DNA of 64,000 bases from Deltaproteobacteria bacterium TL4 (GTDB taxonomy: Bacteria; SAR324; NAC60-12): the NCBI GenBank assembly GCA_051382335.1, contig JBBCAX010000253.1:10552-74551 (forward strand), in the 5' to 3' direction. The position numbers are program-made. Below, piece after piece: positions 39,001 through 48,000 of the stretch (position 1 is its first letter; each line of letters starts with the position of its first letter).

Positions 39001-42000
39001 GCAAAAGTCATTAATAAAATAGAGCTAGGTGGACATATTTTGAAACATACAGGGTTTATTGAACAATTAGCGCATAAAAGTTTTGAAAAACTGCCGTTTA
39101 CACAATTGGCCAACTTAACCGGACAACCGGCTATGTCGGTGCCACTGCATTGGAGTGAGAGCGGATTGCCCTGCGGAGTTCAGTTTATTGCGAAAATGGG
39201 AGATGAGGCGACCTTGTTCCGCTTGGCCGCGCAACTGGAAAAGGCGGCACCCTGGAAAGATCATCGACCGCCAATTCATGCTTAACCAATCAGGGAAAAG
39301 GGGACAAACGTTCAAGACAAAGTAAGGGGAAATTCTTGAAACCGTTGAAGTTGAGTCCCTTGAATTTGGGAACGCGGCCAGTTCAACGCATAGAAAAATT
39401 TAGGAATTGAGGCGCTTTGTCTCAAGTTCTCTTTTAGGGGGGGTATCAAAGAAGCTGGGATAATATTGTTGGATGATGTACTCAATCATCATCCTTTTGT
39501 GTTCTGCGTCAATCTCCAGATATAAGCGAAGAATCTCACTACCACAATCAACAAAGCGCTGCATCAGCATCTCTGAGCCTAAGGGACTTTGAGCAAACAT
39601 GGCGGTAATGTCCTCTTCATCCCAGACCATTTTTGTCTGGTTGAAGAGTTCCAGGAGTTCTGACCTGGACCCTACTTCTTTCGAGGGCTGTTTTCGGCTT
39701 CTCAATCCCACTTCAAAAAAATTCATTTGCTGTGCCTGCCTTTTTTCAGCAGACGGATGTCGCCGCAGTCCCAAAGGAGGGTTCCGGGTTTTTCCTCCAT
39801 TCAGACGTAAGGCTTTGACTCGAATATCCCGCATTTTTTTAAGATAATCCAGTTCATCAAAAATCAACACCTGCCGATAACCATTATGAAAGTAATCCTC
39901 GGATTCCCGTTCCGCTTTTACCTGACAGTAAAGACAGAGCGCCAGCAGATTTTCATCATTTTCATTCAGAGCGTTGCTATCAATATAATAAACTTTTAAC
40001 CTCGATCCTTTTCCCCTCGATAAATGGCCGACATTACAGATGGCGCACCTGTAGCGAAATTGGCTCAAAACCAAGTCTTCAAACGTTTTCATTCCCTGTC
40101 CTACTCCCTGTCTGACGTTTTGTTCGGAGGCCTTCTGAAAAACGTACATGAACCCACGTTTTTTATGTTTTCCTGACCGAATTACTTGAAGTAAACGGTC
40201 CCGATTATTAGCTAAAATACGAACAATATCCACTAAAAAACGATAAAATTTTTCGAGCTGTGCAGGTGGTTTGAAAATTAATCACGAAAAACATGAAATA
40301 AATGATTTTTTAATAAATGAATTGGGGTTGGTCACATTTTCGGCCACAAATTGTAGGGGCGAACCTGTGTGTTCGCCCTGATCCCGGGCAGACACACAGG
40401 TCTGCCCCTACAGAACAAAACCCAACCTATAGATGTTCATTTAAATAAATTCAGAATGTATATTTCGGACGATCCCTTTAATCGACTCATTATTAGGAGT
40501 GTCAAAGCTTGCTTTGACCAGAAAAGCCAAAGCTTTTCTTTGAATTTTGCCAAAGCAAGTTTTGGTACTCCACATTGATTCCAATGAAATTATTTAAATG
40601 AACGTCTATAGGTGGTAAATCAAAGACCGTTTTTTCACACATGGCCGAAAATGTGACCAACCCCAATGAATTCCTCCGTAAAACCTTATTTTGCAGGTTT
40701 TCTTTCGTGTTTTTAGTGTTTTTCGTGGTTTTTCCACAAGATATGCTTTTCCAGTGATCGCCTAATACTTGAAACGATTGGGAGGAACAGGGTAGGTCCG
40801 GGCACAATTGGAGTCCCAATCATTTTCCGAGAGACAGGGATAGTGACCGTGCCAATTGCCGCAATAATACTCATTGCCAAGAGGCAAAGCGGTTTGTATG
40901 GGCATGACAAATTCCCGGCCTGAACTGAACTGTGCCAGAATCCCCTCAGAAATAATGGTGATTTTATTGACTCGGATTTGTCTATGTCCTTCGAGGATAC
41001 CCGCGTACTGAGGGGCATAGATTAACGTACATGTTTCTTGAACCTTAAGTGCTTCGTCTGTCGGATAATAGTAGGCCTTGGGACTTCCAGAAGTGCATCC
41101 TGAAACCAGAAAAAAAACAAGAAGAGCAGCAATAAATATTTGTTTTATGAAAACAATTTTTTGCAGAAGGATCCCCCAGAACGAGTGCGAACACAGCCAC
41201 TGATGGAACATCAATCAATCCTGGAAGAAGTAAGAAAGGCGAGCAAAACTTTTTGAGATCTTTCCTCTTGGTCCACTATCGCAAAATGGCTTTCAGGTAT
41301 TAGCTTTTTTCAATAATGAGATTACTGGACTTTTTGACTAATACCTGAAACCTAACGGTTAATACCTATTTTGCAAAGGTGACTATTCATCCGACTTCGG
41401 AGAAAAGTAGTGTTTCACAAACAAAACGAAAAGGACCAGAAAACTGATCAAAAGGATGTACTCCAACCCTTTCATTTCAAAAATATTGACGTAAGTATAA
41501 CTTTCCAGCATGGTGTCACTCTAGGGCTTATTTGTGAATATTAATCATGTGCTACTTCAAAAACCGGCATTCTGGTCACAATCCAACGAAATACCCAAAT
41601 CTCTATAAAAACAATCATAAAGGACACAACGATTTCCATCCACGTAGGGTAATACCGTGTAGAATACTGCCAATTGAAGGCAATAATGGAGGTATTCAGA
41701 CGATTGAGGATGATCCCGATCATGGTCATCCCAGCGGCTACACGAATGACACGAATGCTTCTGTATTTGACACCGTCCGCAAACAGAATGCAGGGAACCA
41801 GGACAAATCCGATCACTTCCAACAGATACCAAAAGCTCCAGAAACCAAATCCCGTAATCACTTCCAGTTGATGCTCATGAATGGCCACGATTCCTTTGAA
41901 CACAAAGTAGACAAACAAGGCGATCGAAGCTCCCTGGGCCAAGCCATAAATGATTTCATCAAAAGCGCGATGGTCTTCTTCACTCCCCGTATCTTTAAAG

Positions 42001-45000: not shown

Positions 45001-48000
45001 TTGAATTAATCCCAGTGCCTCTTTTCCGTTCTCAACGGTATCCACCGAATAACCGGCAAGAACCAATATTTTGCGAAAACTGTCCAGGACGATGGCTTCA
45101 TCATCAACCGCCAATATCCAGGCCTTGGGATTGCTAACTTCTACGTGTTTCAAACTTTTAGCATCGTCGGTGTAGTCGAGTTTCAGGTCGACCTTTAAAG
45201 CATTCTCTCTTTCTTTGTGAGCATTGGCCTCCTGAATTTTGCGAATAGCCATCCGGATTAAAATATCCAGTGCGACAAATGAGACAATGGTGAGAATAAC
45301 AACAATAATAACCATAATAACCTCGTTATGCTTGATTTCTTAAGTGACGTTCCCCTCTTTAATAAGAGAGTTCGTTTGTTTACTAAGAGGAAAGTGAAGG
45401 GTAAACGTCGTGCCTTCGCCCACAGTACTTTCCACGTCAATGTGTCCTTTATGCTTTTCCACAATGCCCCATACCATGGCTAATCCCAACCCCGTTCCCC
45501 GTTGCCCTTTCGTGGTATAAAAAGGCTCAAAAATTTTTGTCATACCCTCTGGCGAAATACCACAGCCTGAATCCGTAACTCGAACGGCGACAAAATCTTG
45601 GTCCTTACTTCGGCCAGAGGATGTCGTTACGGTGATCTCGCCCCCAGCTTCACCAAGGGCATCCGCAGCATTCACAAAAAGATTGATGAACACCTGGAAC
45701 AATTGATTTTCGTCAGCCCATACCAGCGGCAGATCTTGGGACAGATGCTTGACGATAACCACATTACTTTTCAATTGGTTACTGATAATATCAATCGTCT
45801 TCTGCAAGACCTCATTGATCGGCACCTGTTTTTTCTCTGAAGGGACCGGACGGGCGAAATCCAGCAATTCTTTGACAATCTGCCGACACCGTTTGGTTTC
45901 CCTGACAATCACCTCAAGATCGGCCTTATCTTCGTCCTTGTCAATTCGTTTGAGCAGATAGCTACTATACGTCAACACTCCGGTCAGCGGGTTATTCAAT
46001 TCGTGGGCAACCCCTGCGGCAAGACGACCAATTGATGCCAATTTATCGGATTGGTAGAGTTGTCGTTGCGCATCAGAAAGCTTCTCGGTCATGTCATTGA
46101 ACGATTTAGCCAGATTTCCAAGCTCATCATGTGAGTCAATTTCAATTTTGTGATTCAAGTCTCCAGCAGCCACCTCATTAATGGCTCGCACCAGCCTAGT
46201 CACTGGTGTCCCCACCAGACGTTGCACAAAAAAGAACAATAAGAGGCTCACAATCGCAATGGTCCCACTCCCGAAAATCAACGTTTTGATCTGACTCGCG
46301 CGAATTTGAGCATCCACTTCCGTCAAGGACATGGTAATATCCAGAATTCCCAGTACCTTTTGAGCTTCCGCATGGGCATGACAATCCGCCTGCCAACAGC
46401 CAGGTTCATTATAGATGGGGTTGATCATCCCCATCTTTCTATCTTTATCCGGAGTCACGAAAATCCGTGTTCTCTCAGGAATTGACAAGCGTACCAACGG
46501 TTGATCCGCAACGTGACATGCATAACAGGCTTCAGCGTTCATATCCACCAGAGTGTTCATCACAGATTTGTCCGAAGAGAAAATAATCTCTCCCTCTTTA
46601 TTAATGATCCGAACTTTTTCAATTCCGCTTTGACTCCCAATGGTGTCTATCGTCTGATGCACCCGTTCCCTGTCTTTTACCATCATGTCATGCTTCATAC
46701 TACTCTTGATGGTTTCACTGAGTTGGTGTGTACTTAATTCCACCTGGGCAATCAACTCCTCTTGCTGAGCGCTGATGACAGCATAGGAAAAAATACCGAT
46801 GGTCAGCATTATTACACAGCCCACTGCAAAAATAAGTTTAAAGCTAATTTTACTTCTCATGTTCAACCATCCATAAAATGTCTTGGATACACTCTCAATT
46901 TAAGACCTAAGTTCCTTATGCAACTTTCTGAAGGTGAAATCAATCCATAATTTGATTAATTTTAACAATAAATTCGAATTCAGGACTTAGTGCCCTTTCC
47001 TGCAAACAAAGCCTGCAATGGATAAGAAACCACAACCGTCTAACCAATACTTTCTGCAGTTCGGACAATTACTCACAAAGGTTGAGCTGGATCCTCAGCA
47101 AAACTCACCAAATTAAAGGTAATCGTTCAAGTTCGGTTTAAGGCGATTCGTCGCAGTTTAATCAATAAGATCAAAGAGAAGGATACAAAATATACGCCAA
47201 AAATGGATATCACTAGAAAATTGTCAATAATTTGAACTTATGTTTTACACGAAAAATATGCTATAACTAACTCAGCGACGGAATGTATGCTTCAGCCGCT
47301 TTTTTCACTTGTAATAATTTTACACTCTCCTTCGACACAAACGTAAAATATGCCTTTAAAAACAGTTAATTTAAAACTAGGACTCATCCTGTCCATTCTT
47401 ATTTTGGGTGGGTGCATCAATGTCAAAGATAGTGAGCTTGAAAAAAGTTCTCCTGGCAATGATACCAGCAGTGATGTAGTGAGTCATAAAGACGCAAGCC
47501 TTGAGGCGTCCTCCGATGCTTCTGCAGACGATGTTAATAAGAAACCCTCTGACAAAAGCCTCCGCATACTCATCGCAATCAGTAACTCGATGGTCAAACT
47601 TTCGGGGGGAACGTTCATGAGGGGATACATTCAGGGTGCTGGCTATAGTAATGAATCCCCGATCCATCAAGTCACATTGAGTCAGGATTTTTATATTTCA
47701 GATCACGAAGTCACGGCAAATGAGTACAAAGCGTGTACGGAGGCAGGAGGTTGTACCTATAATGGAATAACCACAGGATCGAATGTGACCTACAACATCC
47801 CAGGAAAGGAAAACCATCCGATTAATTACGTCAGTTGGAATGATGCCCAAGATTATGTCAGTTGGTTGAATCAAAATTATCCGCGGAGTTTTCGACTTTG
47901 CACAGAGGCAGAGTGGGAATATGCGACAATCGCGGGCACCACTACCAAATGGTCGTGTGGCAATCATGAATCTTGTTTGAATGATGTGGCATGGTATCAT

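Follow-up and report, generated by a model that had tools for sequence, protein, structure and literature searches.

A membrane-anchored receiver protein with a lysine-less GcvH-like domain as a putative switch subunit of a quinone-cytochrome module

The window, a 64,000-nucleotide stretch of the genome of Deltaproteobacteria bacterium TL4 (SAR324), holds an operon that would combine an Nhc/Hmc-like quinone-cytochrome module (pentahaem c3 cytochrome, FeS protein, NrfD subunit and HmcD-like peptide) with a dedicated two-component switch. The operon encodes P0001, which I read, with a probability of about 0.5, as a phosphorylation-switched cytoplasmic subunit of this cytochrome/FeS/NrfD/HmcD module; the functional steps in that reading are drawn from gene order, fusions and conservation. 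P0001 would thereby probably couple signalling to the membrane complex directly, bypassing gene expression. The features, all on the minus strand, are as follows, in window coordinates:

45340..46860, minus strand: sensor histidine kinase, 506 aa, ATG at 46860 (TM - single Cache - TM - HAMP - HisKA - HATPase_c)
46513..46527, minus strand: CYACH (CxxCH) haem-c motif, kinase residues 112-116 (C, C and H invariant in 82 aligned sensors)
46378..46398, minus strand: CWQADCH (Cx4CH), second haem-type motif, kinase residues 155-161 (C, C and H invariant in the 82 sensors)
44167..45315, minus strand: P0001, TM-receiver-GcvH-like protein, 382 aa (Pfam, alignment, structure comparison)
45253..45312, minus strand: N-terminal membrane helix of P0001, residues 2-21, predicted N-out/C-in
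44788..45117, minus strand: receiver domain of P0001, residues 67-176 (Pfam, conservation)
44335..44658, minus strand: GcvH-like domain of P0001 without the lipoyl-lysine, residues 220-327 (Pfam, alignment, structure)
43664..44137, minus strand: 157-aa class III (c3-type) cytochrome, periplasmic, N-terminus resembling a signal peptide (5 CxxCH motifs; mature part with 11 His)
42758..43621, minus strand: 4Fe-4S protein, Tat-exported, tail-anchored, HmcB/HybA-like, 287 aa (Pfam, NCBIfam)
41541..42761, minus strand: NrfD-family membrane subunit, HmcC/HybB-like, 406 aa (Pfam, NCBIfam)
41383..41511, minus strand: HmcD-like membrane peptide, 42 aa, 29 nt past the NrfD stop

The first-pass annotation had placed five same-strand ORFs within 41541..46860, separated by gaps of 24, 29 and 42 nt and then a 4-nt overlap, and all of this was borne out. 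A sixth gene was added, the 42-codon HmcD-like ORF after the NrfD gene, which lies beyond that span. A chance fusion or assembly artefact was rejected, since 120/120 listed relatives and a further genome from the same family show this architecture. The genome is 100% complete and holds two GCV_H domains in total, that of P0001 and that of a true GcvH with the ESVKA motif on contig C37. Since it encodes one kinase of the type paired with receiver-GcvH proteins and no second receiver-GcvH protein, P0001 is the only linked acceptor; its 13 sigma-54 activators could take phosphate in trans, which counts against a direct-subunit role. A promoter and terminator scan was uninformative (9 promoter-like sites vs 10.9 expected), and a search for a plasmid match at E<=1e-40 found none.

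P0001 starts with a single hydrophobic segment from residue 2, as the first pass had it, with seven K/R in residues 21-45 and none upstream of the segment. Both Pfam domains were likewise recovered, Response_reg at 67-176 (E 1.2e-30) and GCV_H at 220-327 (E 7.3e-20; the query lacked the first Met, so that raw query numbering is one lower), and no DNA-binding domain is present. The receiver has the acidic pair, phospho-Asp, Thr/Ser and Lys of a response regulator, and these residues (D71, D72, D115, T143 and K165) are invariant in the 120 listed relatives and in 54/54 locus copies. A pseudo-receiver was rejected, with every catalytic residue intact. The receiver shows the highest conservation within the protein (0.90 vs 0.70 for the GcvH part), and its helix 1 and the preceding linker share this top conservation across phyla. 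This pattern bears on the idea that P0001 is a structural subunit whose receiver serves as a phosphate sink or dimerisation aid and does not regulate the module. Receiver-less versions of the module are indeed common, but the conservation of exactly these parts across phyla, and a dedicated kinase clade that tracks the receiver, make that idea very unlikely.

The absence of the lipoyl-lysine was confirmed: the hairpin reads HQQGHSV, the place of the lysine is taken by G274 or H275, depending on which of two aligners is used, and the E-x-x-K hairpin motif is kept in 0/120 listed relatives. Judged from its sequence, the GcvH-like domain of P0001 is unable to carry lipoic acid. The fold is complete (Foldseek against the E. 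coli H-protein 3a8j_E: TM-score 0.93, rmsd 1.2 A, 34% identity) and the Pfam GCV_H score is 71.5 bits vs a cut-off of 22.2, whereas the NCBIfam GcvH cut-offs were missed (TIGR00527 68.4 vs 115.85 bits, NF002270 80.8 vs 117 bits), as were those of the GcvH-related models NF045810 (23.6 vs 150 bits) and TIGR03077 (57.2 vs 144 bits). An ESM Atlas search matched GCV_H clusters only, with a best score of 0.85 that is a lead at most. The domain has one near-invariant Cys, C313; two helices (330-353, 364-374) form the tail behind it, from which the DGG loop of receiver-less relatives is missing.

Such a complete fold may instead offer an H-protein-like surface to soluble partners (glycine-cleavage P/T/L proteins, lipoate ligases or HdrA-type flavoproteins) or to a small molecule, with the redox genes merely co-regulated. 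HdrA-like flavoproteins are fused to or sit beside relatives in 13/40 clusters, and LbpA shows that GcvH-like proteins can be repurposed (PMC6067878). I nevertheless consider this quite unlikely: no gcv or lipoate gene occurs among the annotated protein clusters shared between loci, the hairpin region is poorly conserved (0.56), and the membrane anchor and the HmcD fusions described below indicate the membrane module.

For the FeS protein and the NrfD subunit, HmcB and HmcC ranked top among NCBIfam models, both below the equivalog cut-off (336.9 vs 420 bits and 365.1 vs 550 bits), while the nine-haem cytochrome model NF045784 scored 20.3 vs 640 bits on the window cytochrome. The 42-aa ORF matched the N-terminal part of HmcD-GcvH fusions (hhalign probability 96.7, E 3.7e-10); the NCBIfam HmcD model (NF045712) found no match in the ORF itself and matches the fusions below its cut-off. 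With this HmcD-like peptide encoded by the sixth gene, the block is Nhc/Hmc-like. At the proposed HybB quinone-site residues D58, S105, D109, S129, E133 and S190, the NrfD subunit has N78, A125, E129, S149, L153 and A210, and Leu stands at the E133 position in 120/120 relatives listed. The proposed proton-channel residues are mostly kept (Y77, R89, Y99, Y141, E148, E155, H184, R329). No solved structure matched the NrfD alignment.

The kinase has an intact H-box (HELNNP, His286), and both of its haem motifs, overlooked in the first pass, lie in the periplasmic part. A single Cache fold was indicated by the sensor model (pLDDT 86.5), with Foldseek matches to WalK and Geobacter GSU0935; the profile match to GSU0935 reached E 3.1e-6, and CWQADCH aligns to the haem motif of that protein. 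PF11845 matched 4/82 members of the sensor family at E<=0.1, the window kinase not among them. In a kinase tree built with FastTree, the partners of receiver-GcvH proteins formed one clade (42 rows, support 100), and a sigma-54 activator was the next gene in 0/42 of these rows.

The claim of a very large family held up, with 4393 of 7381 candidates at E<=1e-10 in the full-length regulator search and 1154 clusters at 50% identity and E<=1e-30, distributed over many anaerobic and facultative phyla. All 120 listed proteins carry PF01597 and PF00072, the other 119 at 57-66% identity. Databases label them 'response regulator' or 'glycine cleavage system H protein', and the latter label inflates glycine-cleavage gene counts in metagenomes. 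As claimed before, no paper describing the family was found in the literature searched, the main response-regulator censuses lying outside that search. Linkage is tight: among well-flanked loci (at least 5 kb on both sides; n=19, kin loci not being independent), the haem kinase was present in 19/19 and the FeS/NrfD/multihaem genes in 18/19. A free HmcD-like peptide followed NrfD in 11/11 complete window-type loci. The exception among the well-flanked loci, L034, encodes the kinase and three receiver-GcvH proteins but lacks FeS/NrfD genes in the vicinity, the sole NrfD of this draft genome being on another contig. This counts against a direct subunit, as does a second, soluble receiver-GcvH protein in 16/19 loci, which is missing from the window genome.

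The GcvH-like domain is widespread without a receiver. The fusion partners of receiver-less relatives are HmcD-like helices, multihaem cytochromes, HdrA/MvhD proteins (three loci) or periplasmic binding proteins, and genes for a kinase, a sigma-54 activator and an M54 peptidase are their usual company. Further fusions join the domain to cytochrome-HmcD-type helices and to an FAD/FeS/CCG enzyme and, together with the HdrA/MvhD fusions, indicate that it attaches to redox enzymes repeatedly. The HmcD-GcvH fusions (NCBIfam HmcD E 7.7e-7 to 0.009; 2803 database proteins related to this form at E<=1e-20) occupy the gene slot right after NrfD. Many HmcD-GcvH proteins carry PF28260. PBP_like_2 matched 3/15 proteins scanned for the periplasmic-binding-protein-TM-GcvH fusions, a form found in none of the 251 and 301 genomes searched. 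Among Desulfobacterota clusters, 29/40 have a kinase and 21/40 have no NrfD within 6 kb, so that NrfD is not a universal partner of the domain.

These distributions alter the earlier proposal of a new response-regulator class. What stands is a membrane-anchored, phosphorylatable receiver with no DNA-binding domain and a non-lipoylatable GcvH fold; a new output domain fits less well, as the domain occurs widely without a receiver, including in loci without NrfD, and is therefore better called a redox-enzyme/two-component adaptor that gained a receiver. Judging from this spread, the domain is not primarily a regulator output. P0001 itself looks like a receiver-less membrane subunit that has taken up a receiver, and the kinase clade it belongs with lacks a sigma-54 partner gene. 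Its helix has the M-x7-T-x3-F-x3-D-x3-R pattern common to receiver-less TM-GcvH-like proteins, and this motif and the domain tree group it with those that precede an FeS gene (support 93, not starred). The sister-locus fusions to the HmcD-like helix, a small subunit of Hmc/Nhc complexes, indirectly favour physical attachment to the module; the P0001 helix itself gave no match to the NCBIfam HmcD model, which counts against it.

Information may also flow the other way. The FeS/NrfD module would then be a quinone-pool sensor that reduces or oxidises the periplasmic haems of the kinase (here via the pentahaem cytochrome), GcvH-like proteins would hold module and kinase together from the cytoplasm as a scaffold, the receiver would be a tether, feedback element or phosphate buffer, and the real output would act in trans. 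In Bacteroidota clusters, FeS/NrfD genes occur in 14/15, a multihaem cytochrome in only 1/15, and a haem kinase with sigma-54 activator and M54 peptidase in 12/15, leaving the kinase as the sole evident electron partner of the quinone module, although periplasmic partners may be encoded elsewhere. Desulfobacterota clusters with a kinase fit as well (haem kinases with NrfD in 14/14, non-haem kinases without it in 13/15), and the PBP-TM-GcvH fusions have a receptor-like architecture. The window clade, however, has no linked transcription factor, which would leave the pathway without an output; a search 6 kb around the HdrA/MvhD fusions of L134 and L136 shows no kinase gene; and the GcvH-like gene of L138 and of L141 shares its orientation with hdr genes while the kinase gene points away from it, as in a regulated operon. 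Overall, I regard this reversed flow, the main alternative, as rather unlikely.

In the preferred reading of P0001 as a switched subunit, the kinase haems would respond to redox conditions in the periplasm or to a gas, for instance NO, and control kinase/phosphatase activity, and the kinase would phosphorylate Asp115. The GcvH-like domain, descended from a receiver-less TM-GcvH subunit, would carry no cofactor and would dock as a subunit on the module's cytoplasmic face, and phosphorylation would alter its contacts with the module (assembly, gating of a cytoplasmic proton path or partner recruitment). Evolution would thus have exchanged a sigma-54 activator output for direct phosphorylation of a subunit. 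If true, a subunit of a respiratory membrane complex would be the direct target of two-component signalling, the HmcD peptide might be an anchor for a cytoplasmic adaptor, and a two-haem Cache sensor would be at hand as a test object. A wider proposal is possible, if doubtful: lysine-less GcvH-like domains may be unrecognised, widespread adaptors that tie two-component systems to anaerobic redox machinery (NrfCD-type quinone modules, HdrA/HdrBC flavoenzymes), and in the window clade a two-haem kinase may read electrons from the quinone/cytochrome module and phosphorylate a receiver in a subunit of that same module, a respiratory feedback switch without transcription.

CheY, CheV, RssB, PhyR and CpdR are response regulators that work by protein contact, with a phospho-receiver and no DNA-binding output; P0001 differs from them by its integral membrane anchor, its GcvH-fold domain and a presumed respiratory-module target. 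P0001 resembles GcvH (PF01597, TIGR00527) in fold and in a Pfam score above cut-off, but with the lysine gone its identity as a true GcvH was rejected; it also differs by the fusion to a receiver and membrane helix, by the two-helix tail and by lying outside any gcv cluster, in a genome with a separate true GcvH. In the LbpA lipoate-binding proteins of Hdr-like sulfur oxidation (PMC6067878), the lysine is strictly conserved and a pair of cysteines is conserved too. They share with P0001 a GcvH-like domain in a redox system beyond glycine cleavage, and relatives of the window domain also occur beside hdr genes. LbpA identity was rejected because the lysine is absent; the window domain has one conserved cysteine (C313), and its operon has no hdr genes.

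The Desulfovibrio NhcABCD and HmcABCD operons (PMC8076601, bioRxiv 2023.11.02.564894) have the same order of multihaem cytochrome, tail-anchored FeS protein, HybB-like NrfD and small hydrophobic peptide, and the D. vulgaris hmc operon has rrf1/rrf2, reported to regulate expression. The window operon differs in encoding a kinase and a receiver-GcvH protein, and its NrfD has Leu153 for the quinone-site Glu (HybB Glu133). With five haem motifs, not nine, a bona fide Nhc was rejected though the four-part gene set is present; a bona fide Hmc was rejected as well, given HmcB/HmcC scores below cut-off, no 16-haem HmcA and no HmcE or HmcF (no NarI- or GlpC-like gene follows). Lastly, the window kinase shares the single Cache fold before HAMP with the sCache_heme sensors (DUF3365/Tll0287; GSU0935/GSU0582; PMC12889525), and departs from their canonical single-CxxCH pattern by a Cx4CH at the equivalent site and a second, invariant CxxCH upstream.

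The regulator, a 382-aa protein, is built as the first-pass annotation had claimed:

44167-45315, minus strand: transmembrane helix, receiver and GcvH-like domain without the lipoyl-lysine

Pfam places Response_reg at residues 67-176 and GCV_H at 220-327, the single N-terminal hydrophobic segment starts at residue 2 and is followed by seven basic residues, and the hairpin contains no lysine at the site where the genome's true GcvH reads ESVKA. The window ORFs bore out the proposed five genes on the minus strand, spaced 24, 29 and 42 nt apart and in one case overlapping by 4 nt, and the family is large: 4393 of 7381 candidates matched at E<=1e-10, with both Pfam domains in all 120 matches listed. 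Among these listed relatives the hydrophobic segment was present in 120/120, D71, D72, D115, T143 and K165 were invariant, the motif E-[SAT]-[VIM]-K occurred in 0/120, and the closest named proteins bear a SAR324 label. In an AlphaFold2 model built from the 120 sequences, a long N-terminal helix is followed by the receiver, the GcvH fold and a pair of C-terminal helices, the relative domain positions being uncertain because pTM was 0.53 (mean pLDDT 80.9); its GcvH part superposed on the E. coli H-protein with a TM-score of 0.93. Two GcvH-related NCBIfam models exist, and the regulator scored below both. The gene was present in one of 40 related genomes, so its distribution is patchy. The named loci all come from assembled genomes, and no carrier among them was identified as cultured and genetically tractable.

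The periplasmic domain of the neighbouring kinase contains the motifs CYACH and CWQADCH, a feature absent from the earlier account, and their six Cys/His residues were all invariant across 82 aligned sensors. A single Cache fold was modelled for this domain, and its profile retrieved GSU0935 at E 3.1e-6, a haem-c sensor whose haem motif aligned with the Cx4CH. Since PF11845 matched only 4/82 of the sensors, this is a two-motif variant of the sCache haem type; this genome has one kinase of the regulator-linked type. One-haem sCache domains are described, in the relevant part of a 2026 preprint (PMC12889525), as NO-binding when fused to signalling modules and redox-like when stand-alone.

Downstream of the regulator, the operon cytochrome has five CxxCH motifs, and NrfD is followed by an ORF that was previously missed and is the only one of its kind in this genome:

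41511-41383, minus strand: 42-codon HmcD-like ORF that resembles HmcD-GcvH fusion proteins at their N-terminus (probability 96.7)

Because of this match, the redox block can be read as cytochrome, FeS protein, NrfD subunit and small peptide (the module). The NrfD subunit retains Ser129 and most of the positions that are proposed to line the proton path in HybB; the quinone-site Glu133 is Leu in 120/120 relatives, and Asn replaces Asp58 in this copy. Judged from these residues, the subunit probably, though not with certainty, reacts with quinone. This genome has 21 frames with at least four CxxCH motifs. A second module (L158, G000:C62:14000-33000) lies directly after rnf-like genes and comprises a 16-haem cytochrome, an FeS protein without a Tat motif and an NrfD fused to a 5-haem cytochrome, with no GcvH-like gene; L159 (G000:C359:1000-20900) is a large multihaem cluster with another NrfC/NrfD pair. 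For the NrfD subfamily in operons L142-L157, L044, L064, L118 and L119, the FeS partner lacked a Tat motif in 18/18 cases, and these operons held no Tat-bearing partner either.

Other genes in the window are as follows:

12292-18732, plus strand: 2146-aa protein with seven AsmA-family stretches
18751-24087, plus strand: 1778-aa signalling protein, Ser/Thr kinase - AAA - GAF - SpoIIE
36763-37737, plus strand: 324-aa protein with a Pfam CheX domain at the C-terminus (E 1.6e-10) and no assignment for its N-terminal half
39400-40233, minus strand: 277-aa ORF with no Pfam match; by eye, its CxxC ... N-L-L-A-L-C-x-x-C resembles an HNH zinc-binding motif in degenerate form
50460-55167, minus strand: rpsB (345 aa, ~120 residues past the Pfam domain), tsf, a pyrH-like kinase, an frr-like gene, followed by an MraY-family protein of 418 aa and a FabG-like gene

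The search for regulator loci found 59, from which 14 receiver-only matches were removed and to which the window and one related genome were added; 46 held an intact TM-receiver ORF, 19 of them flanked by 5 kb or more on each side. All 19 well-flanked loci had a haem kinase, 18 had FeS, NrfD and multihaem genes (L034 being the exception), 16 a second, soluble receiver-GcvH protein, seven a sigma-54 activator and two an M54 peptidase; neither the soluble protein nor the peptidase was found in this genome. Three NrfD subfamilies with a mutual identity of ~30% are involved, which argues against simple hitchhiking, and a short HmcD-like ORF lies 3' of NrfD in 11/11 complete loci of the window layout. 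The Elusimicrobia locus L034 has a haem kinase, a soluble receiver-GcvH gene and two TM-receiver-GcvH genes, no FeS/NrfD genes, and upstream a further kinase along with two single receivers. Haem kinases of ~620 aa (L022:7189-9060 and about 27 similar ones) have an insertion of ~110 aa with Cys residues within their ATPase domain and pair with soluble receiver-GcvH proteins having conserved cysteines; kinases of ~510 aa, including that of the window, have neither the insertion nor a Cys-bearing soluble partner.

Lysine-less GcvH-like proteins without a receiver are common and take three forms. The TM form is encoded ahead of the FeS gene and the HmcD-fused one behind NrfD; the third is soluble and Cys-rich. 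A profile built from 11 proteins of the TM form matched 1154 clusters at E<=1e-30, its weaker matches including true GcvH; the HmcD-form profile matched 2803 proteins, and the NCBIfam HmcD model hit 4/4 tested HmcD-fused proteins at E 7.7e-7 to 0.009, all under its cut-off. Context was sampled in 151 genomes of the phylum to which a Desulfocapsa locus belongs (57 had a match), taking 40 regions around high-scoring matches, so that gene context itself was unselected. NrfD was present in 19 of these 40 clusters (18 plus L117, initially missed by an ORF filter), an HdrA-like gene in 13, a kinase in 29, a sigma-54 activator in 30 and the peptidase in 25. Among 251 Bacteroidota genomes 16 matched, and dropping one binding-protein-only match left 15 clusters, 14 with FeS/NrfD, 12 with activator and peptidase alongside a haem kinase, and just one with a multihaem cytochrome. 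As the genomes are kin, the counts in both samples represent a pattern rather than independent trials. E-x-x-K occurred in 1/110 GcvH-like domains of the two samples. The M54 (archaemetzincin) peptidase, found with receiver-less genes (L102-L157) in 25/40 and 12/15 clusters and at receiver-GcvH loci in 2/19, correlates in its presence with a DGG loop.

Haem kinases in the first sample occurred with NrfD in 14/14 cases, and non-haem kinases without it in 13/15. This match, together with modules that have no cytochrome and receptor-like fusions, suggests a signal running from the module into the kinase, the main alternative, which I consider rather unlikely.

Further fusions join the GcvH-like domain to HdrA/MvhD proteins, periplasmic binding proteins and an FAD/FeS/CCG enzyme and, via an HmcD-like helix, to multihaem cytochromes. 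Beside MTHFR genes, L134:9607-12522, L136 and L137:7136-10099 encode ~980-aa HdrA-like/4Fe-4S/MvhD/molybdopterin-binding-domain proteins with a lysine-less GcvH-like domain at the C-terminus; the database proteins P0468, P0497 and P0501, 535-571 aa long, consist of a periplasmic binding protein, a TM segment and a GcvH-like domain, and one member of the clusters is labelled Bacteroidales. The fusions show the domain attached to redox enzymes, and the HmcD fusion would put it on this module; a soluble or small-molecule partner appears quite unlikely.

The window protein shares an N-terminal helix motif with the receiver-less TM form. In a FastTree tree of 90 of 267 GcvH-like domains, based on a short alignment, the TM-receiver group (support 89) joined the receiver-less TM forms (support 93, not starred). 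The tail DGG loop was present in 44/45 HmcD forms, 48/55 Cys forms and 3/52 TM-receiver forms. With the TM-receiver profile, receivers of module activators reached a median of 104 bits versus 75 for this genome's seven scored sigma-54 receivers and 53 for its other receivers, which is a weak control. The window protein may thus have arisen when a receiver entered a membrane GcvH-like subunit, the DGG loop being lost along with activator and peptidase.

Kinases preceding receiver-GcvH genes formed one FastTree clade (42 rows, support 100) in which none had a sigma-54 partner as the next gene, and in this clade the GcvH-like domain carries the sole linked phospho-acceptor; that the receiver is a passive sink seems very unlikely. 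From this anatomy, which is what the sequences provide, I infer the steps of binding, phosphotransfer and direction: on the best reading, the window protein may be a cytoplasmic subunit of the module that is switched by phosphorylation (probability roughly 0.5). Combined with a module that feeds the kinase, such a switched subunit would form a feedback loop, a tentative proposition.

The family is real and large, and apparently undescribed. Full-text literature searches, with subscription journals and bioRxiv supplements outside their scope, found no paper tying a GcvH-like domain to a receiver, NrfD or HmcD, and bacterial output-domain censuses may list the architecture; a term search of the archaeal census PMC5847659 and ten supplementary files of the domain survey PMC4558063 gave no mention of GcvH. 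LbpA, in the portion of PMC6067878 dealing with it, keeps the lysine that the window domain lacks. Compared with the one-haem sCache sensors in the pertinent part of PMC12889525, the window kinase has two haem-type motifs. The redox block has the same layout as NhcABCD and HmcABCD, as far as these are set out in sections of PMC8076601 and bioRxiv 2023.11.02.564894, and lacks the HmcE/F that form part of Hmc. The two-component pair, the Nhc/Hmc-like module and the GcvH fold are known parts, and their arrangement is new.
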